Assembly (NCBI GenBank): GCA_963717505.1
Contig: OY970342.1
Span: forward strand, 2,912,001 to 2,976,000
Direction: 5' to 3'
DNA from: Candidatus Eiseniibacteriota bacterium
Lineage (GTDB): Bacteria; Eisenbacteria; RBG-16-71-46
DNA length: 64,000 nt
Shown here: positions 161-16,924 of the stretch, piece after piece
Layout of the letters: every line of letters starts with the position of its first letter
Position numbering within the stretch: the first letter of the stretch is position 1
The notes under the pieces: generated by a model
Databases searched by the model: none
Told to the model about the DNA's origin: nothing
The model's input: the letters and a program-made list of their open reading frames with translations, nothing else
Position numbers and translations under genes: made by a program

Positions 161-245
161 TGGCGTCCCCAACGGTCGTTACTTCGACCGGCTGGTCGCC
201 TGGCGCGGGGAGATGGACGGACTCCGGCAGGTGCTGGCAGCGTGA
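161..245 (+). repeat. att-like repeat copy 1: tRNA-Glu 3'-end core plus conserved tail
   Basis: tggcgtccccaacgg (161-175) is identical to 16849-16863. The following ~70 bp align with 1985-2055 (gagatggac..ctccggcaggtgct.gc.gcg-stop). Confidence 0.85.
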
Positions 246-267
246 GGTTTCTCGACCTCCGAAGTCC

Positions 268-888
268 CTAGTGAAACACGTTTCGATTTACGAGCAACAG
301 GTCCTCCGACCAGTCGTCCTCGCTGGATGCGATGTTCGACCAGATTCGCAGATAGAGGAAGGCCTTGCCGCCCTTCTCCGGTTCGTAGTCTGTCTTCTCG
401 ATCCCGATCACGAGCGGATCCTCACCCAATTCAGGGATCTGGCGTAGCAAGTCGGCGCGTCCCGCCAACTCGACCCGCCCATCCTCGAAAACTTCCCAGA
501 CGCCAGTGGAGTCGATGGTGAACGTCCGTATCAGGTCCTCTGAGAACGGAAGGTGGACCGCATTCAGTGTCAGGTACCCGCTGAGGTCGAAGGGAGGCAA
601 CGTCTCCGACTTCTGCGTCCGAGCCCCGGTCATGGCATTCTCCGAGTAGGCGACGTCGCGAAGTGGAATCTGCTCCACAACGCTAAGATCGGACTTCCGC
701 ACCTTCTCGAGTCGGAGCGTTCGCCTGTGCGAGTAGTAGGAGGGCGGATACTCGCTGATGGTCACGTACCGGAAGAAGTGGTCGGCGTTCTCTCCGAGGA
801 GCGTCTGCCGCCGCCACGTTCCAGATCCGGGCGTGGCCGCAGCATCCGCTGCGATCAAGATGCTGATTGCGATGACGAGATACCTCAC
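268..888 (-). CDS. Hypothetical exported protein
   Basis: ORF 268..915. A GTG start at 888 gives signal-like MRYLVIAISILIAADAAA. No recognisable domain. Confidence 0.7.
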   Translation of the reverse strand: MRYLVIAISILIAADAAATPGSGTWRRQTLLGENADHFFRYVTISEYPPSYYSHRRTLRLEKVRKSDLSVVEQIPLRDVAYSENAMTGARTQKSETLPPFDLSGYLTLNAVHLPFSEDLIRTFTIDSTGVWEVFEDGRVELAGRADLLRQIPELGEDPLVIGIEKTDYEPEKGGKAFLYLRIWSNIASSEDDWSEDLLLVNRNVFH

Positions 889-998
889 GGGCTGGTTATC
901 GGCAGCGCAAGGCATTCGCAGGAGACGAACCAGAGCCGCTTTCGAGGGGATGCGCTAGCGCTGATATCAGGCCCGGTGGAGGTGGTAGCCTGCGGTTC

Positions 999-1910
999 AT
1001 GAATCAGTTGCGAGTGTTGCTGACGGTGCTGGTTACGTTAGTGGTGCTCCCTACAGGCGCCGGGGCCTCGGCAGAGTCGCAAGTCGAATCGCTGTGGAGG
1101 GGCGTTTTCGAGGGCGACTCACTGTTCGTCCGCGCTGCCTGGATTCCGACAGTCGGTTCCGCGTCGTGCTATCAGAACGAAACCGGCGGCGCCGATACGA
1201 GTGAAGTGCGCCGGAAGTACGTCGAATACAGCATCGAGGACCTTCGCGGGAATGTCTGGCACCGCGGCGTGCTCTCAGAACCGGAGTCCCAGCAGTTCTG
1301 CTGCGATGAGGTATCCGCCGAGGTGGCCCCCTGGCCAGACAGATTGATCGTTAAGCTGACCACTCTCGGCTGGTACTGCGAACCTGCGGGGAACTGCCTG
1401 GCGTCGCGATTCATCCATGTCGCTGGCCCGGACTCGGTGGCAGAGAGCGCTTGGAGCGCTTGGGATGAAATCCCCTGGAACCCCGCGAGAGGCAGTTACT
1501 TCGACGCATGGGTGATCGAAGGGTGCTTTCAGTACCCGATGCGGCTGGAGGCCCGGTTGCAGGGCCACGCTCTCGAATTCAAGCCGACGTTTCCGCCTGG
1601 CGTGACGGAAGGCGATTTGCTCGAGAAGGAAGTCTACAAGGGCGAGGAGTTCGCGTACTGCCTACGGCCATTCAGCCCGACGAAGCCCACGTCGGTCGCC
1701 TGGTATCTGAAGTCAGACTCGAAGTCACCCGAGCGACTGATCATCCAACCGGGCGAGTCGATCGAGATCGTGTCGGCCGTGGTTCGAGCGGAGCGATCTG
1801 AAGGTGGGGAGCTTGCGCCCAAGATCGTCCAAGTAGGTGTCCGAGTGGCGGGCAGGCAAGGCTTCCTGACGCGGGTCGACTTGAAGGCTCTGGGCTTCAT
1901 CGGACTCTGA
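999..1910 (+). CDS. Hypothetical exported protein, Cys-containing
   Basis: 303-aa ORF with Sec-type signal (MNQLRVLLTVLVTLVVLPTGAGASA). No family recognised. Confidence 0.75.
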   Translation: MNQLRVLLTVLVTLVVLPTGAGASAESQVESLWRGVFEGDSLFVRAAWIPTVGSASCYQNETGGADTSEVRRKYVEYSIEDLRGNVWHRGVLSEPESQQFCCDEVSAEVAPWPDRLIVKLTTLGWYCEPAGNCLASRFIHVAGPDSVAESAWSAWDEIPWNPARGSYFDAWVIEGCFQYPMRLEARLQGHALEFKPTFPPGVTEGDLLEKEVYKGEEFAYCLRPFSPTKPTSVAWYLKSDSKSPERLIIQPGESIEIVSAVVRAERSEGGELAPKIVQVGVRVAGRQGFLTRVDLKALGFIGL

Positions 1911-1969
1911 ACGTTCGGTGTCCGTCGACCAAGAAGGCTTGCCGTCACTGAGCCAGAGCTCAGGAATAC

Positions 1970-2055
1970 TGGCGTCCCCAACGGGCGTGGATTCGAACTC
2001 GCTGATGGGCTGGCTCCGTGAGATGGACGCGCTCCGGCAGGTGCTCGCTGCGTAG
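1970..2055 (+). repeat. att-like repeat copy 2: tRNA-Glu 3'-end core plus conserved tail
   Basis: tggcgtccccaacggg is identical to 16849-16864. Frame from 1969 reads LASPTGVDSNSLMGWLREMDALRQVLAA-stop. Confidence 0.85.
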
Positions 2056-2168
2056 AGCCGAGTTCAGTACCGAACCCGTAGAGCGCCGTCCGTGCGATCA
2101 TGTACGATAGGTTGCCTTCGGGCAGCCTCAGAAATCGACTCTGCCTCCTGCGAATGGAGTCGTTCACT

Positions 2169-3119
2169 ATGCTCCGCACCCTGTTGCGCTGCGTCCTGCT
2201 CGCGCTCGTCGCGTCGTTGGGCGCGCGGCATGCACAAGCTCAAGCCCCAACGTTTCTGCTGCAGTGGGGCACCTCGGGAACTGGCGATGGACAGTTTCAG
2301 TCACCCTTCGGGATCGCCGTGGATCCGACCGGCTGCGTTTACGTTTGTGACCAGTACAACAATCGCATTCAGAAGTTCAGCCCAGACGGAGCATTTATCA
2401 CGAAGTGGGGCACGTACGGGCTCGACCCAGGGCAATTCAACATCCCACATTCCATTGGAGTTGACGCAATGGGGCACGTCGCAGTCGTCGACGTCGCTGA
2501 TCGGATTCAGGTTTTTACCTCCGACGGTGTTCTTATGCATTCGTGGGTGCAGCCCGACCATGCGTCTCCGACGATTCGGGATGTGACCGTTGACGCGATG
2601 GGTGTGATCTACATAGCCGACTATCAGGCCGAACGGATCGAGAAGTACAGTCTCGCGGGTGACTTTCTCGGGTCGGTAGGAGACGGCATCGATATTCCGC
2701 CGGGGAGCGTCGCACTCGATCCCATGGGCAACATATACGTGGGCCGGTACGGAAAGATTCGCCAGATCGTTAAGTTCAGTTCAGATGGTGGACAGCTGAC
2801 GAGCTTCGGGCAGGAGGGAGATGGCGACGGGCAGTTCCAGTCGCCGGTCGGGTTGGCGGCGAGCGACGATCTGGCCTACGTGGTCGACTACCAGAATTAC
2901 CGCGTGTTGTTCTTCACGAGCACAGGCGAGTTCCTGGGCAAATGGGGAAGCCCGGGCGCGGGTCCCGGTGAATTCGAGCAGCCGGTTCGCACCGCGCTGG
3001 CGAGCGACGGCGCGGTGTACGTCGTCGATCTACTCAACAACCGAATTCAGAAGTTCGCCCATGTTGTGACCCCTGTTCTTCGCCGGTCGTGGGGAGCGTT
3101 GAAAGCTCAGTATCGGTAG
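2169..3119 (+). CDS. Exported NHL-repeat (6-bladed beta-propeller) protein with C-terminal WGxxKxxYR motif
   Basis: Signal peptide ending AQA; repeats of GxGxGQFxxPxGIAVD..VYVxDxxNxRIQKF; ends VTPVLRRSWGALKAQYR. The ORF is open from 2100; start 2169 chosen from the signal peptide. Confidence 0.9.
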   Translation: MLRTLLRCVLLALVASLGARHAQAQAPTFLLQWGTSGTGDGQFQSPFGIAVDPTGCVYVCDQYNNRIQKFSPDGAFITKWGTYGLDPGQFNIPHSIGVDAMGHVAVVDVADRIQVFTSDGVLMHSWVQPDHASPTIRDVTVDAMGVIYIADYQAERIEKYSLAGDFLGSVGDGIDIPPGSVALDPMGNIYVGRYGKIRQIVKFSSDGGQLTSFGQEGDGDGQFQSPVGLAASDDLAYVVDYQNYRVLFFTSTGEFLGKWGSPGAGPGEFEQPVRTALASDGAVYVVDLLNNRIQKFAHVVTPVLRRSWGALKAQYR

Positions 3120-3247
3120 CGAGACCCGTCGATGTGAAAGTCGCGTCGTCGCTCCCGCGCTCGCCGGATTCGAGAACCAGAACCGACCGCGCAACCCGCT
3201 GTGGGTCCGCGAAACGCCCGCAAGTGCCAGGGCCACAATGGCGGAAC

Positions 3248-3270
3248 TGGCGTCCCCAACGGGATTCGAA
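3248..3270 (+). repeat. attR-like exact duplication of the tRNA-Glu 3' end (23 bp)
   Basis: tggcgtccccaacgggattcgaa is identical to 16849-16871. Confidence 0.92.
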
Positions 3271-3384
3271 TCGGAGGACCGCACGAAAGCACCGAATCCC
3301 ACGAGCGAGCAAACGAACGACGACAACGAGTTGCGGCCGATCGCTGAGGACGATAGTGGTCGATAGTTAGCTTTGCTGCTCGAT

Positions 3385-3640: not shown

Positions 3641-4180
3641 TCATTGCTCGCCCGCCAGTGGCGGCTCGCCCGACGAGCCGGGGTAGCTTTGGCCCCCAAA
3701 AATAACCGCGGTGTAGTTCACGTGGCCGTCGTAGTCGCTGAGTGCGGCCATCGGAATGCGGATGTGAACCCACTGCGCCGGGGTCGGCCATCGGTACGGC
3801 CCCAGGCGCGTGTATCCCACAAACGCCCAATCGCTCAAGCGATAGACGTAGTAGCCGCTGCGCCACGCGTTCTGGGTGATGTAGAACTCCCAGCCGTCAT
3901 GGTTGCCGGTGGCGGGGTTGGAGTCAGCGTCGATGCCGATGCTGAGCCCCAGCTCGCGCACGTCCATGATGTGGTGCCCATCGAACAGCGCGCTGAAATA
4001 CAGATAGCCTCCGCGCGCAACCATCTCGTGCTGCAGGATGACCGGCACCGCGAGCGGTAGCTCGGGGTGGTCGGGGTTCGCGGGGAGCGCCGCGAGGCGC
4101 CCCCCGTGCTCGAGGTCGGGCGAAGTGATGCGGCAGCCGCACAGCGCGGCGGCCACGAGCAGCGTAGCGAGTCTGTTCAT
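3641..4180 (-). CDS. Hypothetical lipoprotein
   Basis: MNRLATLLVAAALCGC lipobox-like signal; IGIDADSNPATG motif reminiscent of Ca-binding beta-sandwich proteins. Confidence 0.75.
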   Translation of the reverse strand: MNRLATLLVAAALCGCRITSPDLEHGGRLAALPANPDHPELPLAVPVILQHEMVARGGYLYFSALFDGHHIMDVRELGLSIGIDADSNPATGNHDGWEFYITQNAWRSGYYVYRLSDWAFVGYTRLGPYRWPTPAQWVHIRIPMAALSDYDGHVNYTAVIFGGQSYPGSSGEPPLAGEQ

Positions 4181-4413
4181 GGAGTGTGTCCCAGCGCGGG
4201 ATTAGTAGTGAATCCTGGCGGACAATAGCGGTTGATGAACGTTTCTGCGATGTCGCGTTCCTCGTCGGTCGGCACCCCCCGAAGAACCTGTCCGGAATTC
4301 GACAGTTGTCCCGGCTTCGGGGCGCCGCCGCCTACGGTTCCGCGGGAGGCAAGGCCGAAACGGCCAATGGAAGGTACGTATTGTGCCGTCCCGTCGGAAT
4401 GAGAGTGCCTCAT

Positions 4414-4460
4414 TGCGGCGTTTCGGTGGCGAATGTCGAGCGCCAGAGAAAAACGCCGCA
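4414..4460 (-). terminator. Stem-loop downstream of the FG-GAP gene
   Basis: Outer arms tgcggcgttt / aaacgccgca, inner arms tggcg / cgcca, ~30 bp after the stop at 4489. No clear U-tract. Confidence 0.35.
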
Positions 4461-4488
4461 GGATAGACCCTTCCCTTCCTCAGCGGGT

Positions 4489-6108
4489 CTACCGGGCGAC
4501 CACGATCTTGAGACGCTCGTCGTGGCCTGCCCACCGCGCGAGCAGAAAGTAGAGTCCGTTCGGCACCGGCCGGCCGCCATCGTCGCACCCGTTCCAATCC
4601 GTCGACTGATGTCCGGCCGCGAAAGCGCCAGGCGCCAAAGTCCGCAACCTGCGGCCCGTGAGGTCGTAGATCTCGAGCACAGCTTCGTCGGCGCTCCCTT
4701 CGAGCCCTCTGGCTGTCGCCAACGTCACCGCCAACTTCTCACCGCGGCACGGCAGCGGCCACGCCGCCAGCGATCGGGTCGGAAGGTGCGGGACCTCCAC
4801 GGACGCCACCTGATCCTTTCCGACAAACAGGTATGCCTGGCCGGCGGCCGCGCCGCCAGCGTTGTTGATGGGCCCGCCGAGAAGCAGGTCGTCGACCTCG
4901 TCGCCGTTCACGTCTCCGGCCCCAGCGACGGCCGTGCCGAGCATCTCACGTAGGGATCCGATCACGATGAGATCTGCAACAGCATCGACTCCAGGGCCAC
5001 CGTGGTAGACACGGACGCTCCCGGCGCCCGCCGCGTCACCGGGCGCTCCGATGACCATGTCGGCGAACCCGTCGCCGTTCACGTCTCCAGCGCCAGCGAT
5101 GCTACCGCCTCCCGTCAGCGTCAGATCGGCGACTTCATCAGCTTCGGGCCCACCGTAGTAGAGGAACGCGTTGCCGCCGCCGACGAGAAGATCGTCGTAC
5201 CCATCGCCGTTAACATCACCAGCACCAGCGACGGCCTGTCCGAAGACATAGGCCCCGACTTCATCGAGAACGAGGTCGGCGATCGCATCGGCCGCCGACC
5301 CGCCGTAGAAGACGTAGGCTCGATCGCTGCCAGGCCCGTTCTCGGGGGGGGCGCCAACGATCACATCGTCGTAGCCATCGCCATTCACGTCCCCTGCTCC
5401 CGCAGTGGACCTCCCGAAGTTGTCGCCCGCCTGTTCTCCCGACAGGACGAGATCCGCCGTATCGTCCATCGGGTTCCCACCATGAAAGAGGTAGGCCTGA
5501 CCGGCGTCGGTGCCGCCGGCGTCGTTCCGATAGGCACCAACGATCAGATCCGCGAAGCCATCACCATTGAAGTCTCCTGCTCCTGCGACCGAGTATCCGA
5601 ACCAGTCGGTGTCGCCGATGCCGGTCAATGTGAGATCGGCAATCGCATCCGCTGCAGGTCCTCCTAAGAAGACGTACGCCCTCCCGACATTGGTGCCCCC
5701 GGCCCCGTCATTGTTGGGAGCACCGACGATCAGGTCGGCGAATCCATCGCTGTTCACGTCCGCGCTCGCCACTGAATAGCCAAAGGCCGAACGATCGGGT
5801 CCGGTGAGGGTGAGATCGGCAGTGGCATCGGCGCTAGGCCCCCCGAAGTAGAGATCGACGCTTCCGGCCTCGGGCCCACCGGCATCGTTGCCGAATGCGC
5901 CGATGATCAGATCGGCGAATCCATCGCCGTTTACGTCACCTGCACCCACAGCGGAGCCGAACCAGTCGCCCGGCGCAGTGCCAGTGAAAGTGAGATGGGC
6001 ACCGTGGACGGTCGGAGGCCCGGGTAGCGCCGAGAACGCCGTTGAGGCGAGCACCGAGACGGCGACCGCAATGATGAGGAAAGCGAGAACCGCTGACGAC
6101 TTTGGCAT
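4489..6108 (-). CDS. Secreted FG-GAP (integrin-alpha-like) repeat protein with C-terminal FlgD-Ig/T9SS-type domain
   Basis: About 7 repeats FGxxVAGAGDVNGDGFADLIVGA; tail IYDLTGRRLRTL..WNGCDDGGRPVPNGLYF; signal peptide. Confidence 0.92.
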   Translation of the reverse strand: MPKSSAVLAFLIIAVAVSVLASTAFSALPGPPTVHGAHLTFTGTAPGDWFGSAVGAGDVNGDGFADLIIGAFGNDAGGPEAGSVDLYFGGPSADATADLTLTGPDRSAFGYSVASADVNSDGFADLIVGAPNNDGAGGTNVGRAYVFLGGPAADAIADLTLTGIGDTDWFGYSVAGAGDFNGDGFADLIVGAYRNDAGGTDAGQAYLFHGGNPMDDTADLVLSGEQAGDNFGRSTAGAGDVNGDGYDDVIVGAPPENGPGSDRAYVFYGGSAADAIADLVLDEVGAYVFGQAVAGAGDVNGDGYDDLLVGGGNAFLYYGGPEADEVADLTLTGGGSIAGAGDVNGDGFADMVIGAPGDAAGAGSVRVYHGGPGVDAVADLIVIGSLREMLGTAVAGAGDVNGDEVDDLLLGGPINNAGGAAAGQAYLFVGKDQVASVEVPHLPTRSLAAWPLPCRGEKLAVTLATARGLEGSADEAVLEIYDLTGRRLRTLAPGAFAAGHQSTDWNGCDDGGRPVPNGLYFLLARWAGHDERLKIVVAR

Positions 6109-6385
6109 CGTGCTTCTCCCCGTCTTGGTCGCTGCGAACGGCCTGCATCACCAGGCCAGCCCTGAGATTCGAACGGATCGACGAGTCGATGGGACTCGGC
6201 CTGGTTATCGGCCGAGCCGACGCCGACCTCGAAATGTTGTTCCCGGAAACCGGCTCGAGGTGCACGACGATCGTGCCACTCGGCATTGTCCCCGCATGGC
6301 GATCGCTTGACAGGCCGAATGCATAGGCGTTGACTCGGGTGCCACTCAGGACTGGGGCAGCAAGGCCCCGCGACAAGGAGGTCGC

Positions 6386-9300
6386 ATGCCCACGATGCCC
6401 ATATCGTGCTTCCGCCCGTCATGGACGACGGTCACAGCCACCGCCACTTCCCTGCTGGTGGCCCTCACTCTGGGACTGTTCACGCCTCCTGCGCCGTCTA
6501 GTGCCCAGGAACTGAACCCGGAGTTCCCCGTTACCGACGGCACTGTCTGGGCCATGACTGTGTTGGACAGCACGCTCTTCATTGGGGGTTCATTTACGTA
6601 CGTGGGCCGAAATACAGGCGGGTTTGTCGGTGTTGATTCCGCATCGGGCGAAGTGGCTGCGGGATCGGTCCGTGTCGATGGGCACGTGTACGCCAGTGCT
6701 CCAGATGGGCAAGGCGGTCACTATCTGGGTGGCTCGTTTAGGAGTATTTCCGGAGTCCCTAGGGATCGGCTAGCACATGTTCGATCCGATGGAACGCTAG
6801 GCGATTGGAACCCTGGAGCAGACGGCAATGTACGGGCCCTGGCGGTGACCGGTTCGACTGTCTATGTCGGTGGCTCCTTCACGACTATTGGAGGGCAGCA
6901 ACGGAACCGCATTGCTGCTCTCGACGCCACCACCGGGTTGGCCACGAGCTGGAATCCAGGGGCCAACGGAACAGTGAACACAGTCGCGGCGAGTGGGCCG
7001 ACCCTTTACGTCGGCGGAGCATTTAGTAACGCGGCCGGCGTAACGCGAAACAACCTGGCGGCGATTGATGTGGTGACAGGTGCTGCGACTATCTGGAACC
7101 CAGGCGCGAACCAACCTGTATCGGTTTTGGCTGTGAGGGGGCCCACGGTCTACGCGGGGGGGGCCTTCACAAGTATTGGTGGACAGTCACGAGACCGCGT
7201 CGCCGCACTCAATACAGTAGGCGGTCAGGCCAGGAGCTGGAATCCTGGTGCGAGTGGCCTCGTAGCCGCGCTGGGGTTTCGGGGATCACTAGTTTACGTG
7301 GGCGGCAGCTTCTATAACATCGGAAGCCAGGCCCGGCAATCACTAGCTGAGATCGACTCGGTGAGCGGTCTGGCCACATCGTGGAATCCCGCCATCGAAA
7401 GCGGCTCTCTCCCTGGAGTAGTGGGAGCCATCTTAGTTAGTGAGGCATCGGTCTACGTTGGCGGAGCATTTACCAGCGCGGGTGGGCAGGGGCGCTTGAA
7501 CGTGGCTGAGATAGACGCCGCGACGGGCCTTGCCACGAGCTGGAGCCCGCACACCAGTGGTCAGGTGAACACCATTTCCTGGAGCGGGTCAACAGTCTAT
7601 GTCGGTGGAATCTTCACAAGCATTGGTGGAGTCAAACGTAACCGTCTCGCCGCAATTGACATCACGACCGGCTTCACGACTGGATGGGACCCTGGAGCGA
7701 ACTACAACGTCATGGCATTAGAAGGGAAGGGCTCGACAATCTACGTCGGTGGCTACTTCACCGGCATAGCCTCAGAGTCGCGAAGCAACATCGCCGCTCT
7801 CGACGCCTCCACTGGGCTGGCCACAAATTGGAGCCCTGAGGCAAGCGGACCCGTCTACACCATCGCTCTCAGGGGTTCGACGGTCTATGTCGGTGGCGAC
7901 TTCACCAGTATTGGTGGGCAGTCACGAAATCGCATTGCAGCAATCGACTCTGCCACCGGTCTGCCTACGAGTTGGGACCCCGGAGCAAACGGAGACGTGC
8001 GGACTATTGCGATGGGTGACTCGACTGTCTATGCAGGCGGCTTCTTCACCAGCATAGGAGGAGAGCCACGAAGCAGGATTGCCGAGCTTGACGCCACCAC
8101 CGGGTTGGCTACGAGTTGGAACCCAGCCGCTGGTGGGGAGTGGTTCACCGTGCAGACCCTCGCGTTGAGCGGCCCGACGGTCTATGTCGGCGGCATCTTC
8201 ACGAGCATGGGTGGGCAGCCGCGATCCAACCTCGCCGCCATCGATGCCACTACAGGCCTGGCCAACAACTGGAATCCCCAGGCGGATGGCATGGTCTACG
8301 TTCTGAAAGTTGCTGGACCGACGGTCTATTCGGGTGGGTCCTTCTCTACGATCGGCGGACAACAGCGCAACGGCCTCGCCGCACTTGTTGGCACCACTGG
8401 ACTGGCTACGAGCTGGTCAGCAGACGCAGATAGTTTCGTGTCCATCCTTGCTGTGACCGATGATGCGGTCTACGCCGGTGGCTCATTCAATTCAATCGAC
8501 GGCAGAAGCAGGCCCAACTTGGCGCAATTTCTTGGACCGACACCCATACCAGTTCCGAGGGCTGTTGTTTCGGACATCCAAATTGCAGAAGGCGATGTGG
8601 GGGCGGCCCAACTACTCTTCACCGTGACGTTGTCAGAACCGTTCGACCAGCCGGTGACTGTGGACTTCAGCACTGTCGACGGTTCAGCTACAGCTGCGGA
8701 CGACTACGTAGCGATCTCGGGGACGCTCACAATCCCTCCTCACGAACCAAGTGGGGTAATCTCAGTGAGCGTTGTTGGCGATGGCGTGTACGAGCCGGAT
8801 GAAACACTCTTACTCAGCCTGAGCAACCCCACAAACGCCGAAATTGGCGATTTCCAAGCCGTAGGCACGATCATTAACGATGATCCGATTCCGACGATTG
8901 CCGCCGTCGCCCCCGTCGAAACCCTTTCTCCGACCACGCCATCCCTAGCCATCCCGGTGACGATTGCCCGCGGGGACCCTTCGGTGATTCTCGGGTACTC
9001 GGTGCGGCTGCATCTCACCGATCTGACGATTACTGGCGGCGGGATCGCTGGGTTTGTCGAGGGAACATTCCTTCAAGCTGGCAATCCTCTAACGAGCTTT
9101 CAGGTGGTCGACAACGGTGGTGGATCGTACACGGTGGACAACGTGACGCTGGGCATGCCTTGCGGATCGACCGCAACAACCGGAACCCTGTTCAGTGTTG
9201 CTGTTGGAAATGGCACGCTGGCTGGCTTCGGTTCCGTGACGATCGACCAGGCGACCGTCTACGACTGCAACAATGCTGCCTCATCGTTCGCCATCGGGCC

Positions 9301-11125
9301 ACCGGTTGCGGTCTCTATCGACTACACCCCACCGGTGGTGGCAGTAACATCGCCAAACGGTGGGGAATTCTGGCCCGAGACAATCACCTGGAACGCGACG
9401 GATGACGTCGCGATCGCGCAGTGCGATCTGCACTATTCAACTGACGACGGCACTACGTTCTCGAACGTCATCGCGCTCGATGTCCCCAACTCGGGGACGT
9501 ACGCATGGTCGCCGCCCACTACACCAAATGCGCAGGCTCGAGTTCGAGTGACCGCCTATGACGTGAACGGCAACGCCTCTAGCGATGCCAGTGATGCGAG
9601 CTTTGTTCTTGGGCAGTACGGCCTGACGGTGAGCGTGTCCAACGGTACCGTCGTTAAGTCGCCAGATTTGCCCGCGTACGACCCAGGGGTCGATGTGATG
9701 CTTACGGCGACCGCAGTGGCCGGCTTCCATTTCGTGGAATGGACCGGTGACGCGACTGGGTCCGCAAACCCCGTGACGATCACAATGGATGGCAACAAGG
9801 CCGTCACCGCGATCATCCAGGCGAACCCTCCTGTAGCACCGATCACCGCGCTATCTGCCACTCAGGTCAGAACTGGAAACGACTCCGACGGCTCAACGAA
9901 GATCCGGTTGAGCTGGCCATCAGTGCCCGCAGGCACCGTAGTCGTGGTCTATCGGGCGGGGTTTGGCTACTACCCTCGATACGACGAGCTTGGTGGTGCA
10001 GTCCCCTCGGTCCCGTCCTATCCGCCACCAACTCCGTGGAGCCCAGTAGCGGTTAGTTCGTCGGGCGAGACCGATGAGCCGCCAGGGCGGGACTTCCACT
10101 ATTACGTCGCGTTTGTCGTTGATGGGTTTGGAACCGTCTCACCGGCATCGAACCTGACCGGCGGGGCCCTGAACTACCACCTCGGCGACGTGACGAATGG
10201 CGCGACACCAGGTCAGGGCGACAACATTGTGGACATCGCAGATGTCTCGCTACTAGGAAGTCACTATGGCGCGTCGGGTGCCGAGGCAATCGCATTTGCA
10301 TACCTCGATGTCGGGCCGACCACTGATCGATCAGTGCACACGCGGCCGACAACAGACGGGCGACTCGACATTGAGGACTTGGTCTTGTTCGGACTCAACT
10401 ACGCTCAGGTGTCCGCTCCCATGGCCAATGCTCGAACGACGACAATCAAGGCCGGCGTCGATGAGTTGACATTGCTCGTGGCCGAATTGCCGCCCGATCA
10501 ATTGGAGGCGACCCTCGAACTCAGAGGCACCGGAGCCATACAGGCTCTTGCGACCACGCTGCAATGGGATCCGGCGGTAGTGGAGCCGGTCGACCATGCC
10601 GCGGGCGAATTAGTCGTGGACCAGGGTGGACTGGCACTGTCCCCGGGGCCCGGCCGCATTGACGCGACGCTTCTTGGTGCCCGGCCCATGGGGCTCTCCG
10701 GCGTTGGCGAGGTGGCTTCGATCAGGTTTCGCCGGCTGGCGCCAGGGGATCCCGCTATCGAGTTCCAGTCCGCGATCGCGCGGGATGCTCTGAATCAGGA
10801 TGTGCCACTGTCTACCACGTATGCAGCCGAAGTACCGCATGGCCCCATGGCGTACGCATTGTCACCGCCATTCCCGAATCCCTTCCGGTTAACCACGACG
10901 CTGTCCTTTGGCCTAGCGCATTCGGGAACTGTTGAGCTAGCCGTCTTTTCCGTAGACGGACGGCGGGCTCGGACGCTTCTTAGCGGGCCAATTGGCGCTG
11001 GGGACCACCGGGTGCCCTGGGACGGGCGGGACGCCCTGGGCAGCCGCGTCCCAGCCGGTATCTACTACGCGCGACTCACCACGACGCACGGCCAATTCCT
11101 ACAGAGGGTGGTCCACCTGCCATAG
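6386..11125 (+). CDS. Large secreted multidomain surface protein: 14 propeller repeats, Calx-beta, cohesin-like, Ig-like, dockerin-like, FlgD-Ig C-terminal domain
   Basis: 14 repeats of TVYVGGxFTxIGG..RNxIAAxDxxTG..WNP; Calx-beta-like VTVDFSTVDGSATAADDY..GTIINDD; paired GD..VDIADV / DGRLDIEDL loops; tail PFPNPF..WDGRDALGSRVPAGIYY; aaggagg RBS. Confidence 0.9.
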   Translation: MPTMPISCFRPSWTTVTATATSLLVALTLGLFTPPAPSSAQELNPEFPVTDGTVWAMTVLDSTLFIGGSFTYVGRNTGGFVGVDSASGEVAAGSVRVDGHVYASAPDGQGGHYLGGSFRSISGVPRDRLAHVRSDGTLGDWNPGADGNVRALAVTGSTVYVGGSFTTIGGQQRNRIAALDATTGLATSWNPGANGTVNTVAASGPTLYVGGAFSNAAGVTRNNLAAIDVVTGAATIWNPGANQPVSVLAVRGPTVYAGGAFTSIGGQSRDRVAALNTVGGQARSWNPGASGLVAALGFRGSLVYVGGSFYNIGSQARQSLAEIDSVSGLATSWNPAIESGSLPGVVGAILVSEASVYVGGAFTSAGGQGRLNVAEIDAATGLATSWSPHTSGQVNTISWSGSTVYVGGIFTSIGGVKRNRLAAIDITTGFTTGWDPGANYNVMALEGKGSTIYVGGYFTGIASESRSNIAALDASTGLATNWSPEASGPVYTIALRGSTVYVGGDFTSIGGQSRNRIAAIDSATGLPTSWDPGANGDVRTIAMGDSTVYAGGFFTSIGGEPRSRIAELDATTGLATSWNPAAGGEWFTVQTLALSGPTVYVGGIFTSMGGQPRSNLAAIDATTGLANNWNPQADGMVYVLKVAGPTVYSGGSFSTIGGQQRNGLAALVGTTGLATSWSADADSFVSILAVTDDAVYAGGSFNSIDGRSRPNLAQFLGPTPIPVPRAVVSDIQIAEGDVGAAQLLFTVTLSEPFDQPVTVDFSTVDGSATAADDYVAISGTLTIPPHEPSGVISVSVVGDGVYEPDETLLLSLSNPTNAEIGDFQAVGTIINDDPIPTIAAVAPVETLSPTTPSLAIPVTIARGDPSVILGYSVRLHLTDLTITGGGIAGFVEGTFLQAGNPLTSFQVVDNGGGSYTVDNVTLGMPCGSTATTGTLFSVAVGNGTLAGFGSVTIDQATVYDCNNAASSFAIGPPVAVSIDYTPPVVAVTSPNGGEFWPETITWNATDDVAIAQCDLHYSTDDGTTFSNVIALDVPNSGTYAWSPPTTPNAQARVRVTAYDVNGNASSDASDASFVLGQYGLTVSVSNGTVVKSPDLPAYDPGVDVMLTATAVAGFHFVEWTGDATGSANPVTITMDGNKAVTAIIQANPPVAPITALSATQVRTGNDSDGSTKIRLSWPSVPAGTVVVVYRAGFGYYPRYDELGGAVPSVPSYPPPTPWSPVAVSSSGETDEPPGRDFHYYVAFVVDGFGTVSPASNLTGGALNYHLGDVTNGATPGQGDNIVDIADVSLLGSHYGASGAEAIAFAYLDVGPTTDRSVHTRPTTDGRLDIEDLVLFGLNYAQVSAPMANARTTTIKAGVDELTLLVAELPPDQLEATLELRGTGAIQALATTLQWDPAVVEPVDHAAGELVVDQGGLALSPGPGRIDATLLGARPMGLSGVGEVASIRFRRLAPGDPAIEFQSAIARDALNQDVPLSTTYAAEVPHGPMAYALSPPFPNPFRLTTTLSFGLAHSGTVELAVFSVDGRRARTLLSGPIGAGDHRVPWDGRDALGSRVPAGIYYARLTTTHGQFLQRVVHLP

Positions 11126-11139
11126 GAGGTGAAGAGTTC

Positions 11140-11964
11140 GTGTGCGGTTCACGATGCTGTGCCACGTTCTCGCCATTCGTGTGGCTTGGAACGGCGCTTC
11201 TCGTCATGTTCGCATCTTCTTCGGAGGCGGGGGTAGTCGTGTCGATCCCTCCCGACTCTTTGGTCGTCGCGGCAGGTTCAGAGTTCGAGGTCAGCGTCGT
11301 TGTTACGGAAGCAGGGTCAAGTTTCAACGCGATCAGTTTAGTGATTGGGTTCGATCCCGATGCCCTGATGCCGCTGCCAATATCTCCGCTCACGGGGCAG
11401 GTCGGCGCGGCCCTGCTCGATGCCTGCACGAGCGTGTTCCACGATTTCCGCATTGGCTCTTTGAGCGACACAATCAACTGTGCGCTGTTGTGCGGCGGTG
11501 CTTCGACTTCTGGACCTGGCCAAATCTACCGCCTGCGATTTCGGGCCTCGCCGGTTCCTCAAGTCACGGAGCTGACTTTCGTCGAGAGCAAGTTCTACCA
11601 GGCAGGCGTACTCGTGACACCGGTTACGTCAACCAACATGGTTGTTCAGGTCGCAGCACAGGCGGCGGGGGTCACTGATGGGACCCTGACTGGGGCCTTG
11701 TCCGTCCAGGCAACGCCGAACCCAATAAGAGGGGGGACCCTCCTCGTGGTCCACGGTCCAGAAGCCGGGTACCTGACGCTTTCGGTCATGGACATCCAGG
11801 GGCGGGCGGTGCGTCAGTTGGTTGCCGGATGGAGCGTTGGGCCCTGGAAAGCATGGTGGGACGGTAAGGACGATTCGGGTGTAACTGTGCCCGCGGGTGT
11901 TTACTACGCCGTGGTTCGCACGTCGTCTGGATCCGCCCAAAGCCGAATCGTCGTGCTGCGCTAG
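11140..11964 (+). CDS. Secreted cohesin-like protein with FlgD-Ig C-terminal domain
   Basis: Cohesin pattern GSEFEVSVVV..FNAISLVIGFDPDAL..GQIYRLRF; tail TPNP..WDGKDDSGVTVPAGVYY; aggaggtg RBS. Confidence 0.85.
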   Translation: MCGSRCCATFSPFVWLGTALLVMFASSSEAGVVVSIPPDSLVVAAGSEFEVSVVVTEAGSSFNAISLVIGFDPDALMPLPISPLTGQVGAALLDACTSVFHDFRIGSLSDTINCALLCGGASTSGPGQIYRLRFRASPVPQVTELTFVESKFYQAGVLVTPVTSTNMVVQVAAQAAGVTDGTLTGALSVQATPNPIRGGTLLVVHGPEAGYLTLSVMDIQGRAVRQLVAGWSVGPWKAWWDGKDDSGVTVPAGVYYAVVRTSSGSAQSRIVVLR

Positions 11965-12010
11965 CTGTGATGTCTCACCACTGAACAACCTCCTGAGACA
12001 TCACAGTTAG
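11961..12010. repeat. Near-perfect 17-bp inverted repeat with a TGT...ACA core
   Basis: ctagctgtgatgtctca ... tgagacatcacagttag, 16/17 complementary, 16-nt loop. Confidence 0.85.
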
Positions 12011-12305
12011 GTCAGGACTTCGCTTGCGCTGCGGCGGCGCAGATGCATGATGTTTCCCGGTTGCGGCGCTGGTGCGTGGTGTTCGGCGATAAGGAACGAA
12101 GCATAGGCTGAGTGTGTCGAGCTGGCCTGGCAACTGTGAGGGACGTTTGGTGGCGAAGTCACGCCTGGTCGACATGCTGCTAGGCTTGATGACTGTCTTG
12201 GGGGACAAACCCTGCTGACGCGTGGGGGTCGGACGATTGCGAATGTTCGGCTTGGCCTCAAGAATAACCAAGTGAGCGACCTGCGTTCGCTTCCAAAATA
12301 GGCAG

Positions 12306-13022
12306 ATGACCGACCAGCCTTCCCCCTCAGAGGTTCCCAGCTCAACCGGCCTGCCATCGGCGGACACGACCCCCGAGAATTCGGCGCTTCTCGGAGATGC
12401 GAGCCGCACACTTTATCGTCGATTTGTCCGCAAGGATGCCGAGGTCCCGGTGAAACCGCCGCCTCTGGCGGCAATGTACTTGGGCGCCAAGATGGTTCGC
12501 CTCCGCCCGGACAATCCCGAGTTCATCTCCCACGCTGGCCACAGCATCCGAGAGCTCATCGACGCGCTTCCCGGCAAGTACCCAAACGTTCCGGTGTTCG
12601 ACCATGTGGATCTAGTTTCAAGGTCGCGTTCGCTGATTGACGCCTGGACTGCTTACCAAGGTGCGGCGCCCGGCGTCAAAGCCCACCTTGGCGCGACATT
12701 CGAATCCACTATGCAGGGCTTTGCGACAGACATGGCGGGAGTGCGCGTTACGAGACGAGAGCAGGCCGGAGCCCTGATGGGAGCGATGGACCCTTCAGGT
12801 CGCCCGCTTCCACCTGTAATAGCGGAGCTCAGGGTGGACGAGTGGGGCGCCTATCGCGCGTTCTTTGTCCGGGCCTGCCACCATGGTTTAACGACCCCCG
12901 AAGACTTCGACAGAATGCTGGAGCTATTCGAAGAGTTTCTGATAGATCGATTGGGTCTGAGGACGTTTCGGAGTCAAGCGGCTCTCGAAGCGATAGTCGC
13001 GGAAGGAGAGCGGCATGCCTAA
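12306..13022 (+). CDS. Hypothetical helical protein, possibly HEPN-like
   Basis: 238 aa; motifs MYLGA..DNPEFISHAGHSIRELI and FFVRACHHG; stop overlaps the next start by 8 bp. Confidence 0.75.
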   Translation: MTDQPSPSEVPSSTGLPSADTTPENSALLGDASRTLYRRFVRKDAEVPVKPPPLAAMYLGAKMVRLRPDNPEFISHAGHSIRELIDALPGKYPNVPVFDHVDLVSRSRSLIDAWTAYQGAAPGVKAHLGATFESTMQGFATDMAGVRVTRREQAGALMGAMDPSGRPLPPVIAELRVDEWGAYRAFFVRACHHGLTTPEDFDRMLELFEEFLIDRLGLRTFRSQAALEAIVAEGERHA

Positions 13023-15912
13023 CCGCGAGCAGGTCAAGAGGGCAATCGCCGCCATTAAGAGTGCGGCCGACACGGAGTATTTCTTTGACGCACTAAAGTC
13101 GCCAGATTGGATTGTGCACCTGGAGGCAGAAGGACTGTTCCGTCATCCACCGGAGCCGATTCGCGAAAATCAGACGATTGGGTTTCCATTCTGGCCGCAA
13201 TCTCGCTACCTCCAGCGCATGGCTCCTCTCGCGGCTGATGAGGTGCTTCGAGTCATCCTCGCGATCCCGGACACGGACAACGTTCGCGTTCAGGAGGATT
13301 TTCTCGATGCCGCGATAGTGATGCCAGCGGACCGTGCCGCGCGAATGGTGCCGAAGGTGATCAAGTGGGCGTCTTCACCGTATCAACTGCTCCTTCCGGA
13401 GAAGGCCGGCAGTCTTGCGTCCCGCCTCGCGAGTGGAGGTCAGGTCGATGGGGCCTTGAGCATCCTTCCAGAACTTCTTGCGCTCCGACCGGACTCGCCG
13501 CCAACCACGAGGGAAAAAGGGGCTGGGTTTGCCCTGCCTCCAACCCCGGTCGGCCGATTCCATGAGTGGAAGTACAGGCAGATCCTCGAAAAACATGTCC
13601 CGGCGATTGTGGCAGCAGACGGCCTGAGAACGCTCCAGGTGTTGGTTGAGCTACTAGACAACGCAGTCGCAATCTCCAGACCAGATGCGCGAGGTGGTGC
13701 CGACCATTCCTACATGTGGCGACCGTCAATTGAGGATGGCTCTCAGAACCACGACCACGGTCCACGCGACCACCTCGTCTCCGCTGTGCGTGATGCTGCA
13801 GAGGGAACAGTTACGGCGCACGCCGATTTACTAACCCGGGTTGTCGAAGTATTAGAGGCCAAGGAATGGGACGTGTTCCGACGGCTGGCTCTCCATGTCC
13901 TTCGCAGGTTTCCGACAGCTGGTTTGGCACTCGCGAAGGAGCGAATCCTTGATGAAGAGGCAGTTGAGGATGTCGGCGTGTTCCACGAGTACTGGCTGCT
14001 GGCCGGGGTGATCTTCCCCAGGCTGGAGTCCGTGGAGCAAGAGCGCCTTCTTGCGATGCTCGACGACAAGCTCGCCACGGAAGAGGCCGAGGCGAACAAG
14101 GAGCCGACGCCCGAGGCAAAGGACGAGGCCCGCGAGCGTGCTCGCCATTGGCTCTATCGGCGCTTGACCCTCCTTGGTCGCGCGCTCCCTCGGAAGCGCG
14201 TCGATCAGTTGCAGCGTCTTGCCGAAGAGTTTGGTCCGATTGAGCACCCAAGTTTCCTGGCATATTCATCTGGCGCCGTGTGGGTCGGACCGACCAGCCC
14301 GAAGGGCGAGCAAGACATCTCTCGCATGTCCACAACGGAACTGGCCGACTTCCTGAGGAATTGGCAACCAGCCGGCAGTGTCATCGAAGCTACCCCAGAG
14401 GGATTGGGACGTACGCTTTCGGGAGCTGTTGCTGCAGACCCAACTCGATTTGCGTCGGGAGCACGAGACTTTGTAGGGCTCGATCCTACTTATGTGAGGG
14501 CGATCTTCTCGGGTCTCACCGAGGCGGCTAAGGCGCAGAGGTGGTTTGAATGGGCCCCGGTGCTGGCGCTCGCTCGCTGGGCTGTCGCTCAACCTCGAGA
14601 TGTGCCTGATCGTCCCAACCTCCATTTTGAGGCTGATCCGCACTGGGGGTGGGCCCGCAAGGCCATCGCTGAGCTATTGACCGCCAGTTTTGGACAGCCG
14701 GGGGAGGGGCTCCCGTGGGCTTCCCGAACTGTCGCCTGGGATCTTCTGGAACCACTCACGAACGACCCCGACCCTACGCCTGAGCGTGAAGCACAGCACC
14801 TCGGCAAGAACATGAACCCGCTCACGCTGTCGATAAACACGACCCGTGGCGAAGCGATGCATACAGTCGTGCGGTACGCTCTTTGGGTGAGGCGGTATCT
14901 TGACGATGAGTTCACCAAAGGTCAACAAACGAGCCGCACCTTCGATGTGATGCCCGAGGTGCGCTACGCGCTCGAGACACATCTCGACACTAGACGTGAT
15001 TCATCGGCGGCAGTCCGCTCGGTCTACGGCCAGTGGTTCCCGTGGCTGCTTCTACTCGACTCACACTGGACTCGAGATCACATCGCGTCGATCTTCCCTC
15101 CATCGGCAGCCGCCCTGGGGCTGTGGCGAGCCGCATGGAACGCTTACATCTCCTTCGGCGGCACCTTCGACGACGTCTTCGAGGTTCTGACCGAAGAGTA
15201 CGCGCGAGCGATCGCCCGTATTGGCCAGGACTCGGATGCGCGTTTTGGAGGCACACGCCCGGACAATCGACTTGCACAACACCTCATGGTGTTCTACTGG
15301 CGTGGCAAAATGCCGCTGGGCAACCGCGAAGGCTTACTCGCTGCCTTCTACAGGTCTGCGGGACCAGAGCTGCGGGAGTACGCCCTCGACTTTGTGGGTC
15401 GCGCCATGCACGGCGAAGACAAACCGCCGGTGCCAGATCCAATCCGCGATCGACTTCAAGCGCTGTGGGCTTGGAGGCTTAGCGAGAGTCGTGCGATCGA
15501 GGCATCTGAACGCGCCGTAGAACTTGCTGCGTTTGGGTGGTGGTTTGCTTCTCGCAAATTCCCTGACGATTGGGCGCTTGATCAACTGCTTCAAGCTCTT
15601 CGGTCCGGCGGCAAGCTCGAGGCGGGTCACCTTGTGATCGATGAGCTTGCGACGTTCTCTACACGCGAGCCCGACAAGACGATTGAGGCACTTACGTTAA
15701 TCATCGACGCCGACAAAGAAGCATGGGGAGTGTCGCTGCGAGCTGACAAGGTCGAGACGATCATTAGTTCTGCACTGAACAGCGGAAACCGGATCGCTGC
15801 GGAGAAGGCCGCCGATCTCGTTCACGTTCTGGGAGCGAGAGGCTTCAGGACGTTCGGCCGACTCCTGCAGGGCGAAGGGCCGGGGCACACGCCACCCGCG
15901 TCACTATCATGA
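13015..15912 (+). CDS. Large hypothetical alpha-helical (HEAT/ARM-like) protein
   Basis: Clean 965-aa ORF, rich in Trp, Leu and Ala; no signal peptide; no Walker motif seen. Confidence 0.85.
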   Translation: MPNREQVKRAIAAIKSAADTEYFFDALKSPDWIVHLEAEGLFRHPPEPIRENQTIGFPFWPQSRYLQRMAPLAADEVLRVILAIPDTDNVRVQEDFLDAAIVMPADRAARMVPKVIKWASSPYQLLLPEKAGSLASRLASGGQVDGALSILPELLALRPDSPPTTREKGAGFALPPTPVGRFHEWKYRQILEKHVPAIVAADGLRTLQVLVELLDNAVAISRPDARGGADHSYMWRPSIEDGSQNHDHGPRDHLVSAVRDAAEGTVTAHADLLTRVVEVLEAKEWDVFRRLALHVLRRFPTAGLALAKERILDEEAVEDVGVFHEYWLLAGVIFPRLESVEQERLLAMLDDKLATEEAEANKEPTPEAKDEARERARHWLYRRLTLLGRALPRKRVDQLQRLAEEFGPIEHPSFLAYSSGAVWVGPTSPKGEQDISRMSTTELADFLRNWQPAGSVIEATPEGLGRTLSGAVAADPTRFASGARDFVGLDPTYVRAIFSGLTEAAKAQRWFEWAPVLALARWAVAQPRDVPDRPNLHFEADPHWGWARKAIAELLTASFGQPGEGLPWASRTVAWDLLEPLTNDPDPTPEREAQHLGKNMNPLTLSINTTRGEAMHTVVRYALWVRRYLDDEFTKGQQTSRTFDVMPEVRYALETHLDTRRDSSAAVRSVYGQWFPWLLLLDSHWTRDHIASIFPPSAAALGLWRAAWNAYISFGGTFDDVFEVLTEEYARAIARIGQDSDARFGGTRPDNRLAQHLMVFYWRGKMPLGNREGLLAAFYRSAGPELREYALDFVGRAMHGEDKPPVPDPIRDRLQALWAWRLSESRAIEASERAVELAAFGWWFASRKFPDDWALDQLLQALRSGGKLEAGHLVIDELATFSTREPDKTIEALTLIIDADKEAWGVSLRADKVETIISSALNSGNRIAAEKAADLVHVLGARGFRTFGRLLQGEGPGHTPPASLS

Positions 15913-15921
15913 ACGGAGTAG

Positions 15922-16752
15922 TCATGCTGGCCGAATCGTTAGCCTGAATTCGGAATCCGCCAGGTTCGCTTGGAGTACTTGGACAGGACGGTTGCGACGT
16001 CCCAGGATGTCACGGACGCGAGCCTGATCCTCGCGGGATACTCTGCAACCGAGGATAACGCCGTCGATCGCCTCCTCGGGGATCTCCACCAAGCCAGGTC
16101 CCCCATGGCGCACGATCCGCCACTCACGCTCGTGACTCCATACGACGGCCTTGGTCGCCAAGGTTGATTGACTCCGTCGGAAGGGACTAGAGCGGTAGAA
16201 GTTGATCTTGGGGTAGGTGTTCTCGTACGTAACTGGCATGGGTCCGTAGCAGCCTAGCCATTCATGGGACCTTAGAAGCAGTCCCGTGTTGAAGCGCAGG
16301 CATACACCTCGGTGCCCATCCGCGTAGTAGCCCCACATGGGCAAATCGTTGGGGACCTCGCTGAGACACACAACTCCGAGTTGGGCCACTGCCTCATCAT
16401 GACCAGCACGTAGCCGCTTGTGGGCTTCCGTGACGGGCATCATCAAGATGCGATCGATGGCACTGGCATCTCTTGCGAGACCCATTTCAACTTGAACGCG
16501 TTCCCAGAACTCTCGTTTCTCTTGGTCTGTCGCGTCATCAACCGGATAAACAGCACCATCAAATGGATCATTGAACTCGGAGATCATAGGAAAGTAGAGC
16601 AGCGATCGAAGGGCGAGATCACAGAACCAGGCGAATCGATCGCCCCGGATGCTTACGTACCTGTAAAGACTGGGCAGGTGTTCCAGACGCAATCTCCACG
16701 CGGCGATCGTCGCGTGGTCCTCCTCAGTAAATCCTTGCTCGGCGTCGTTCAT
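15922..16752 (-). CDS. DUF2971 domain protein
   Basis: Motifs LYRY, FNDPFD, VVCLSE..LPMWGYYADGHRGVCL, TKAVVWSHEREWRI, IDGVILG. Start set at MNDAEQ (16752), because the longer ORF runs through the tRNA. Confidence 0.88.
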   Translation of the reverse strand: MNDAEQGFTEEDHATIAAWRLRLEHLPSLYRYVSIRGDRFAWFCDLALRSLLYFPMISEFNDPFDGAVYPVDDATDQEKREFWERVQVEMGLARDASAIDRILMMPVTEAHKRLRAGHDEAVAQLGVVCLSEVPNDLPMWGYYADGHRGVCLRFNTGLLLRSHEWLGCYGPMPVTYENTYPKINFYRSSPFRRSQSTLATKAVVWSHEREWRIVRHGGPGLVEIPEEAIDGVILGCRVSREDQARVRDILGRRNRPVQVLQANLADSEFRLTIRPA

Positions 16753-16848
16753 GGCTAACCTCGCTTTCTGCCTGCCTGTGGTGACCGCAGCAAGGCGTGC
16801 TTTCTGAACGTCTCTGCGCCGGAGTGTCCGAGGGGCGCGTGAACGGTC

Positions 16849-16924
<76 letters not shown>

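Follow-up and report, generated by a model that had tools for sequence, protein, structure and literature searches.

The stretch analysed here comprises 64,000 nucleotides of a Candidatus Eiseniibacteriota bacterium (assembly GCA_963717505.1, contig OY970342.1, positions 2,912,001 to 2,976,000, forward strand; the whole stretch is hereafter called the window), and it opens with two direct repeats, at 161-245 and 1970-2055, which begin with the core of a tRNA-Glu 3' end and continue into a short coding tail. Probably, these repeats are the leftover ends of stacked mobile elements whose integrase gene spans its own attachment (att) site, each repeat coding for the last 25 residues of such an integrase, a detachable tail that resembles a degradation tag. 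In the arrangement that we propose, the P arm of an element would follow a displaced tRNA 3'-end core at each junction, the core coding for ..LASPT.. and the P arm for the last 22-26 residues, a putative amphipathic helix (SN.L.GWLR.MD.LR...) ending in -AA. Integration would cut the recombinase gene inside the core, the integrated recombinase would end in 12 residues read from the antisense strand of the tRNA (ASPTGFEPVSPP), and the tail would stay at the opposite end of the element. The integrated order on the tail-sense strand would thus be host flank, core, tail arm, cargo, recombinase gene, core and antisense tRNA, and the tail would be regained upon excision, or when a tail-bearing unit lies immediately downstream. 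The partner of the tail would usually be a tyrosine integrase, sometimes a large serine recombinase, and all recombinases would since have been lost from the window. If the tail is a degradation signal (degron), the recombinase would be short-lived except beside the tRNA.

The only tRNA identified by ARAGORN and Rfam in the first 20 kb of the window is a tRNA-Glu(TTC), and Rfam returned no structured RNA beyond the tRNA. Repeat finding showed that the plus strand carries antisense copies of the last 15 nt of this gene at 161, 1970 and 3248, within what we call relics D, E and F (Table 1). Direct reading, repeat finding and alignment agreed with a preliminary description of this DNA on the position and start of the first two repeats, as well as on their translations, the 1-nt gap, the synonymous end codons (ctg/ctc, gca/gct and tga/tag) and the frame ..GRVNGLASPTGFEPVSPP that reaches its stop at 16889. 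The tail parts of relics D and E are 81% identical across 53 nt (repeat finding and alignment), and the window tail ends ...LREMDALRQVLAA. The open frame of relic E extends merely 28 codons upstream, with no real gene joined to it, and no integrase was found in the window upstream of the frame that runs into the antisense tRNA. The preliminary description had omitted the third core (3247-3273), three tail copies upstream of the window and a more distant orphan tail. The three upstream copies sit 16 kb (genome position 2896092), 1.5 kb (2910505, where the core is degenerate) and 0.76 kb (2911243) before the window start, and read LASPTIENSNRLIGWLRGMDGLKQDLKTP, VASSTGADSNRLAAWLRGMDVLRRVLAV and LASPTGVDSNHLIGWLHGMYSLQRSLETAA, each followed by a stop. 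In total, six directly oriented tRNA-Glu 3'-end cores form a 33-kb series on the island side that ends at the tRNA; the tail is present at five of the six, being intact in three, behind the degenerate core in one, and frameshifted in one (window 161). The frame is open for 1-28 codons upstream of the core in four copies and for 48 codons at 2910505. The G+C content of the island is 0.59-0.66 over most of its length, compared to 0.677 genome-wide. Of the features by which Islander recognizes an island, a full tRNA gene with a displaced 3' fragment in direct orientation is present, and an integrase inside or overlapping the island is absent by the PF00589 and PF00239 profiles and by tblastn. Contigs of six sequencing runs contain shares of 0.07-0.17 of the stretch.

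The more distant orphan tail, at genome positions 2670142-2670216 on the minus strand (..LVALRGAGTNPIASWLREMDALRHALAA and stop), follows a different core; it lies 1.1 kb from a tRNA-Gln gene, and its core does not match the 3' end of that tRNA. This core type is also present in two other genomes (G027 and G108). A minus-strand 33-nt match just past the window proved to be ordinary sequence and was judged to be due to chance. The arm of relic F reads LASPTGFESEDRTK...DDSGR and stop (in full, LASPTGFESEDRTKAPNPTSEQTNDDNELRPIAEDDSGR and stop), and could represent a recombinase tail of another type. A 39-aa query made from it has matches of 42-56% identity in 7 of 89 family genomes, its own copy excluded, with the stop at about the same place, and in G094 an arm of this type directly follows the core that closes a higBA unit.

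That a gene crosses attP, as the preliminary description had proposed, is borne out by relatives. When the tail-bearing fragment P0022 was used to search for longer proteins, it led to tyrosine integrases of about 400 aa, which in other Candidatus Eisenbacteria end ...LASPTGFEPVSPP over antisense tRNA-Glu. Sixteen of 20 such integrases end ...ASPTGFEPV.PP or in a near variant; among the other four, one ends in another frame of the same DNA (..WRPQRDSNPCRRRERAVS), one (P0151, a near-full-length tyrosine integrase) bears the tail, and two end otherwise. Among nine integrase loci of the family, the open reading frames (ORFs) of G104, G090 and G096 (405 aa in the latter) end ...LASPTGFEPV(S/L)PP over antisense tRNA-Glu in the frame of the tails, which are the recombinase ORFs ending in ASPTGFEP that had been anticipated at this tRNA. 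Those of G066 and G073 cross tRNA-Glu in another frame; two more lie beside it without crossing, one decayed and one stopping 59 nt short; the last two are found beside a tRNA-Leu and in a locus with no tRNA. The core frame GCG TCC CCA ACG is identical in tRNA-ended integrases and in tails, so that a crossover anywhere in the core preserves the reading frame.

Most tail matches are short orphan frames, and some retain recognizable upstream parts: the end of a Phage_integrase domain in P0022 and P0059, an Arm DNA-binding domain (Arm-DNA-bind_2) in P0072, and a recombinase zinc ribbon (Zn_ribbon_recom) in P0057. The peptide of the core-tail junction was found in P0022, P0059, P0024 and P0151. 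A 613-aa match in G060 turned out to be an unrelated secreted protein. Searching longer proteins with P0070 returned three serine recombinases of 500-519 aa with PF00239 and PF07508. Two of them, P0280 (519 aa) and P0281 (515 aa), are full-length and end in the tail (...VASLSIPSWNQITGFLTSMRQLRDAVGFQA and ...LASPVLASWNQITSWLQQIDGLRRAA), while the third, P0279, has an ending of the tRNA-antisense type (...RLASPTGFEPVLPP); these three and P0151 are known here from protein sequences alone. The tail thus does occur in frame with long upstream ORFs, namely those of P0280, P0281 and P0151. The suggestion that the recombinase would be of the large serine type holds for P0279-P0281 but not for the family in general, where an integrase query matches 53 of 89 genomes and a serine recombinase query only one, and the usual partner is a tyrosine integrase. 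Taken together, these sequences support the view that the recombinase gene crosses attP and that its C-terminus would be swapped by integration. In addition, a full-length large serine recombinase frame of 593 codons in G112:C144 continues to the contig edge along the antisense strand of another tRNA-like 3' end (...VVAPTGFEPVF).

The preliminary description had also argued for selection on the peptide from the synonymous differences between its two repeats. By themselves these are weak evidence, as the 12 differences between relics D and E fall 2, 4 and 6 at codon positions 1, 2 and 3, and the case rests on the wider family, where the idea fares better. A profile of the tail matches 41 of 89 family genomes at E<=0.001 and, phylum-wide, 43 of 206 genomes at E<=1e-6 (38/88 in the organism's own family, 3/10 in a second and 1/2 in a third); the unpublished genome G038 is counted in these figures. 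When 39 tails were aligned by codon, variation in the conserved Leu, Arg, Asp and Ala columns was confined almost entirely to position 3 (at positions 1, 2 and 3, variation is 0.33/0.00/0.52 for Leu16 and 0.08/0.15/0.64 for Ala30), and fixation at position 3 is limited to Trp, Met and an S/W-N pair. Mean pN/pS (the ratio of nonsynonymous to synonymous variation) over columns 11-28 is 0.57 in frame, as opposed to 1.15 and 1.21 in the shifted frames, and the stop falls within a few codons of the profile end in most copies. Twenty-nine of 49 different tails extracted from genome loci end in AA. Among 1.84 billion representative proteins, the profile has 599 matches at E<=0.001, and in 127 of the best 150 of these the tail forms the C-terminus, with 11-17 residues from the invariant Trp to the end. 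Of these 127 tails, 114 end in A and 90 in AA, a count to be read knowing that the profile itself holds terminal Ala columns, which slightly favours AA-ended matches to the detriment of our argument, and that the short representatives are partly non-independent. As a background, AA ends 40 of 1112 (3.6%) proxy ORFs, a set made of the long ORFs of this genome with a high G+C content at third codon positions. The tail is found behind other cores as well, including a third core (LVDLR../LVALR..) and another core frame (VWRPQDGELNQLLGWLREMNELRLALAEKAA and stop). Because of the codon-position pattern, the pN/pS ratio, and the conservation of both stop and AA end, the tail is, judged by its sequence, a coding segment under peptide selection.

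As for what this peptide does, the role that we regard as most likely, and still propose tentatively, is that of a C-terminal degradation signal of the ssrA kind, because of the -AA ends, which are frequent whatever their distance from the Trp, the ALAA ending of the host's own tag and the presence of ClpXP. The host transfer-messenger RNA gene (genome positions 1691166-1691516) encodes the tag ANEQFALAA, and its clpX (623.6 bits) adjoins clpP (285.3 bits). An AlphaFold model of P0151 (built from a 27-sequence alignment, with a mean predicted local distance difference test score, pLDDT, of 77.5) also counts in favour: in it, a stretch of 54 residues with pLDDT <50 separates the catalytic domain from a terminal helix at 352-374. 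The terminal LAA emphasized in the preliminary description holds for the window, where both copies end in VLAA, but not for the family, where strict LAA is seen in 10 of the 127 tails mentioned above and AA is the prevailing end.

Several points weigh against the proposed reading. An intact full-length tyrosine integrase with the tail is absent from the 89 family genomes, which hold fragments and decayed copies only. Long frames that seemed to be joined to the tail did not withstand inspection: the 454-aa frame of G017 is antisense to an NHL gene, and those of 917, 281, 268 and 267 residues (in G076, G103, G088 and G072, respectively) are Arg-rich and out of frame. With respect to the degron role, the position preceding AA is variable (V 15, L 10, E 10, A 9, T 8 and K 6 of 127), and a strict LAA signal would therefore not suit every tail; copies in the genome studied here include one ending in KTP and one ending in AV; and the conserved helix exceeds what a terminal degradation signal needs. 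Lastly, columns 8-10 (the S/W-N codons) are fixed at position 3 too, and to that extent the arm is constrained as DNA. No intact element with both ends was seen among the loci examined; G028:C20 comes nearest, with a tail at 4.7 kb from the tRNA and an integrase in broken pieces, and in 8 loci related to the integrase P0153 the DNA upstream of int is too short to include the far end.

The extent of the conserved helix bears on a different role, which we consider rather unlikely but worth weighing, where the tail would not be a degron but a helix that controls activity or direction, to which a directionality factor, a host factor or the recombinase would dock. In that case, integration would alter what the enzyme is capable of and not its lifetime, as is reported for the IntP and IntX forms of myxophage Mx8. 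The terminal helix in the model of P0151 also fits this role. The amphipathic character of the helix, its invariant Trp, and its near-invariant Leu, Met and Arg go far beyond what a terminal degron would call for, the residue before AA is not fixed, and int is described as acquiring both a new 3' end and a changed specificity when Mx8 integrates (PMC6070905, in the part available). However, the terminal AA is kept despite a variable helix spacing, which points to the free C-terminus itself, and the tail is carried by unrelated tyrosine and serine enzymes and so stands outside either catalytic mechanism. The two roles are also compatible, as a helix that binds an adaptor together with an AA end would fit both.

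We would assign a similarly low probability to the possibility that the arm is kept mainly as DNA, namely as the cis site of int-less cassettes shuffled at tRNA-Glu by recombinases acting in trans, with the peptide being secondary. In addition to codons 8-10, which are fixed at all three positions, this possibility draws on the arrays of short units (0.45-7 kb) with many tails and almost no recombinase remnants found in G000, G032, G012, G002 and G092; in the last four, three to seven tails follow tRNA-Glu, with 0.45-7 kb from one to the next. Upstream of the window, a 735-bp unit at genome positions 2910506-2911259 is made of a core, a tail, a HigB-like toxin gene and a helix-turn-helix (HTH) antitoxin gene, and is 89% identical to a unit of G094:C350, from a different genus, in an alignment that runs exactly from core to core between unrelated flanks. 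Likewise, a 754-nt unit that ends in a core is 97% identical between two other genera (G002 and G088), and a 76% relative of it directly adjoins the tRNA-Glu of G012. These units suggest shuffling in the manner of cassettes. The left boundary of the G002/G088 unit shows a 6-7-nt match to the core start, and may mark an event at a secondary site. Against a DNA site as the main object of selection stand the codon pattern, the pN/pS ratio, and the conserved stop and AA end, which indicate peptide selection, the occurrence of the tail behind different cores and in a different core frame, and the lack of any attC-like hairpin in eight strands folded as single-stranded DNA (z -1.06 to +1.34). A function as a DNA site can, in any case, coexist with the detachable recombinase tail proposed here.

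A broader version of this idea, which we offer as speculative and improbable as it stands, is that Eisenbacteria may practise an integron-like capture at tRNA genes, in which int-less cassettes of 0.5-14 kb would be delimited by the 15-nt core and carry a portable tail, and unrelated tyrosine and large serine recombinases would read across the core and take their C-terminus from whatever lies downstream. With a cassette or the closed circle on that side, the recombinase would acquire a tag-like tail; with the tRNA there, it would have a neutral ending read from the antisense strand of the tRNA. A newcomer inserted at the tRNA would re-tag, and so disarm, the resident recombinase. If true, this would explain arrays of residents without integrases. 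No intI or attI was found beside the array, which has no tyrosine recombinase near it and abuts the tRNA gene.

The proposal that the arm is conserved solely as integrase binding sites, with frame and LAA end being incidental, can be set aside as very improbable: P arms of elements with tyrosine integrases normally carry arm-type sites, and the two window copies alone lack a significant codon bias, but the codon pattern, the -AA ends and the pN/pS ratio contradict it, recombinase ORFs physically continue into the tail, and serine and tyrosine enzymes would not share sites.

In the window itself nothing is switched, because no recombinase is present, and the tails are untranslated orphan relics between int-less cargo units. 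Neither PF00589 nor PF00239 gave a match near the array, and tblastn with 13 recombinase queries against the array returned the core and tail as sole matches and no recombinase remnant; a faint similarity lies 20-26 codons before two of the cores and lacks significance by itself. Genome-wide, the profile search yielded six Phage_integrase matches, all distant from the array, and no Resolvase match, in a genome with an estimated completeness of 86.7%. The cargo found between the cores of the island includes a dehydrogenase, an amidase, an S9 peptidase and secreted proteins with FlgD_ig or Por_Secre_tail domains, as well as the higB/HTH pair, NHL, FG-GAP and DUF2971 proteins, and several unknowns (those of the window are listed in Table 1). 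The gene for the 1579-aa repeat protein contains internal repeat units of 144 nt (beta-propeller-like DUF5122 and Calx-beta), the FG-GAP gene at 4489-6108 has repeats of about 170-186 nt, and both carry an FlgD_ig-type sorting domain at the end. An NHL-repeat gene in the array of G017 resembles the one in the window by about 50% in tblastx, and between two array tails of the same genome (G017:C81, 1686-2914) lies a two-ORF transposase, with a 106-aa ORF followed by one of 303 aa that is integrase-core-like.

Table 1. Attachment-site relics, tRNA target and cargo genes in the window (positions count from its first nucleotide)
Feature	Position	Strand	Remarks
Distal att relic D	160/161-245	+	Core (161-175) and P arm with putative recombinase tail; a 1-nt deletion breaks the frame, then RLVAWRGEMDGLRQVLAA and stop
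Distal att relic E	1969/1970-2055	+	Core and intact end of the tail ORF, LASPTGVDSNSLMGWLREMDALRQVLAA and stop
Distal att relic F	3247-3366	+	27-nt tRNA-Glu 3' fragment (3247-3273), then a second, different arm type
34-codon open frame into antisense tRNA	16785-16889	+	...GRVNGLASPTGFEPVSPP and stop; in relatives, the integrase gene ends here
tRNA-Glu(TTC) gene, attB target	16849-16924	-	3' end is the repeated core; ARAGORN and Rfam
Unit D cargo	268-1910		ORFs 268-915 (-) and 999-1910 (+), neither with a Pfam match
Unit E cargo, NHL-repeat protein	2100-3119	+	
Unit F cargo, 13.6 kb	3641-16752	mixed	
FG-GAP protein	4489-6108	-	Unit F
1579-aa repeat protein	6386-11125	+	Unit F
Protein with FlgD_ig tail	11140-11964	+	Unit F
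Unknown proteins	12306-13022, 13015-15912	+	Unit F
DUF2971 protein	15922-16752	-	Unit F; adjoins the tRNA

Should the tail serve as a degron or as a control helix, the topology of the DNA (free, in tandem, or adjacent to the tRNA) would set the fate of the very enzyme that changes this topology, and a single gene would provide a feedback switch without a repressor. Such a finding would also bring together, in an uncultured phylum, oddities so far associated with Mx8 and BPs, with the same device placed on tyrosine and serine recombinases alike. Serine recombinases with tRNA-antisense endings merit a closer look given that, according to the portion available of the 2014 Islander article (PMC4383910), only tyrosine-family integrases were then known to target tRNA genes. 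On a more practical level, the tails flag old integration sites even where no integrase remains, and annotators should be warned that integrase ORFs overlapping tRNA genes are real.

With respect to known systems, the likeness to integrons lies in short units of one or two genes with a conserved site of about 85 nt at one end, which recur with breakpoints at that site; unlike in integrons, there is no adjoining intI, the insertion point is a tRNA gene, no attC-like hairpin is seen, and the site codes for a recombinase C-terminus. Streptococcal CIMEs offer a further comparison for int-less cis-mobilizable elements. Tandem tRNA-gene islands are on record (PMC4383910, Table 1, from the portion available), and they share with this one a full tRNA gene and, after it, displaced 3' fragments that are directly oriented and separated by foreign DNA; here, however, six units without integrase are stacked, most of them of 0.7-1.8 kb, and the fragments carry a coding tail. 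In Mx8, attP lies within int, and integration is reported to yield a recombinant gene whose 3' end is new, and to change the enzyme without destroying it (PMC6070905, in part); Mx8 and SSV integrases are also listed as extending across attP in the accessible text of PMC4383910. The elements discussed here resemble Mx8 in having attP inside the integrase gene and the 3' end of a tRNA gene as target, and an integrase ORF across the core with two C-termini is seen in relatives and not in the window. The swapped piece, however, is here a short, family-wide module ending in -AA, common to tyrosine and serine enzymes and to different cores, and the text seen of PMC6070905 mentions neither a tag-like tail nor sharing across families.

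In mycobacteriophage BPs and the phages of clusters G, I, N and P, integration takes place at an attP within an ORF and strips off a 33-residue C-terminal extension that bears an ssrA-like tag; the repressor form made by the BPs prophage is stable, and the BPs integrase has a C-terminal proteolysis signal as well (PMC4557955, according to the part available to us). In BPs it is the repressor gene that crosses attP, and the tag stays on the integrase in either state, whereas here the recombinase would lose the tail; the genes crossing the core are recombinases by Pfam, and no repressor was seen among them. The host also differs, being an uncultured member of the Eisenbacteria, the loci examined showed no phage genes, and degradation is here predicted from sequence. 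We found no report on Eisenbacteria integrases in the literature and, judging by titles and the openings of abstracts, no integrase whose tag is removed by integration. By analogy, then, the arrangement would be the design of Mx8, with attP inside int, combined with that of BPs, where integration removes a degron.

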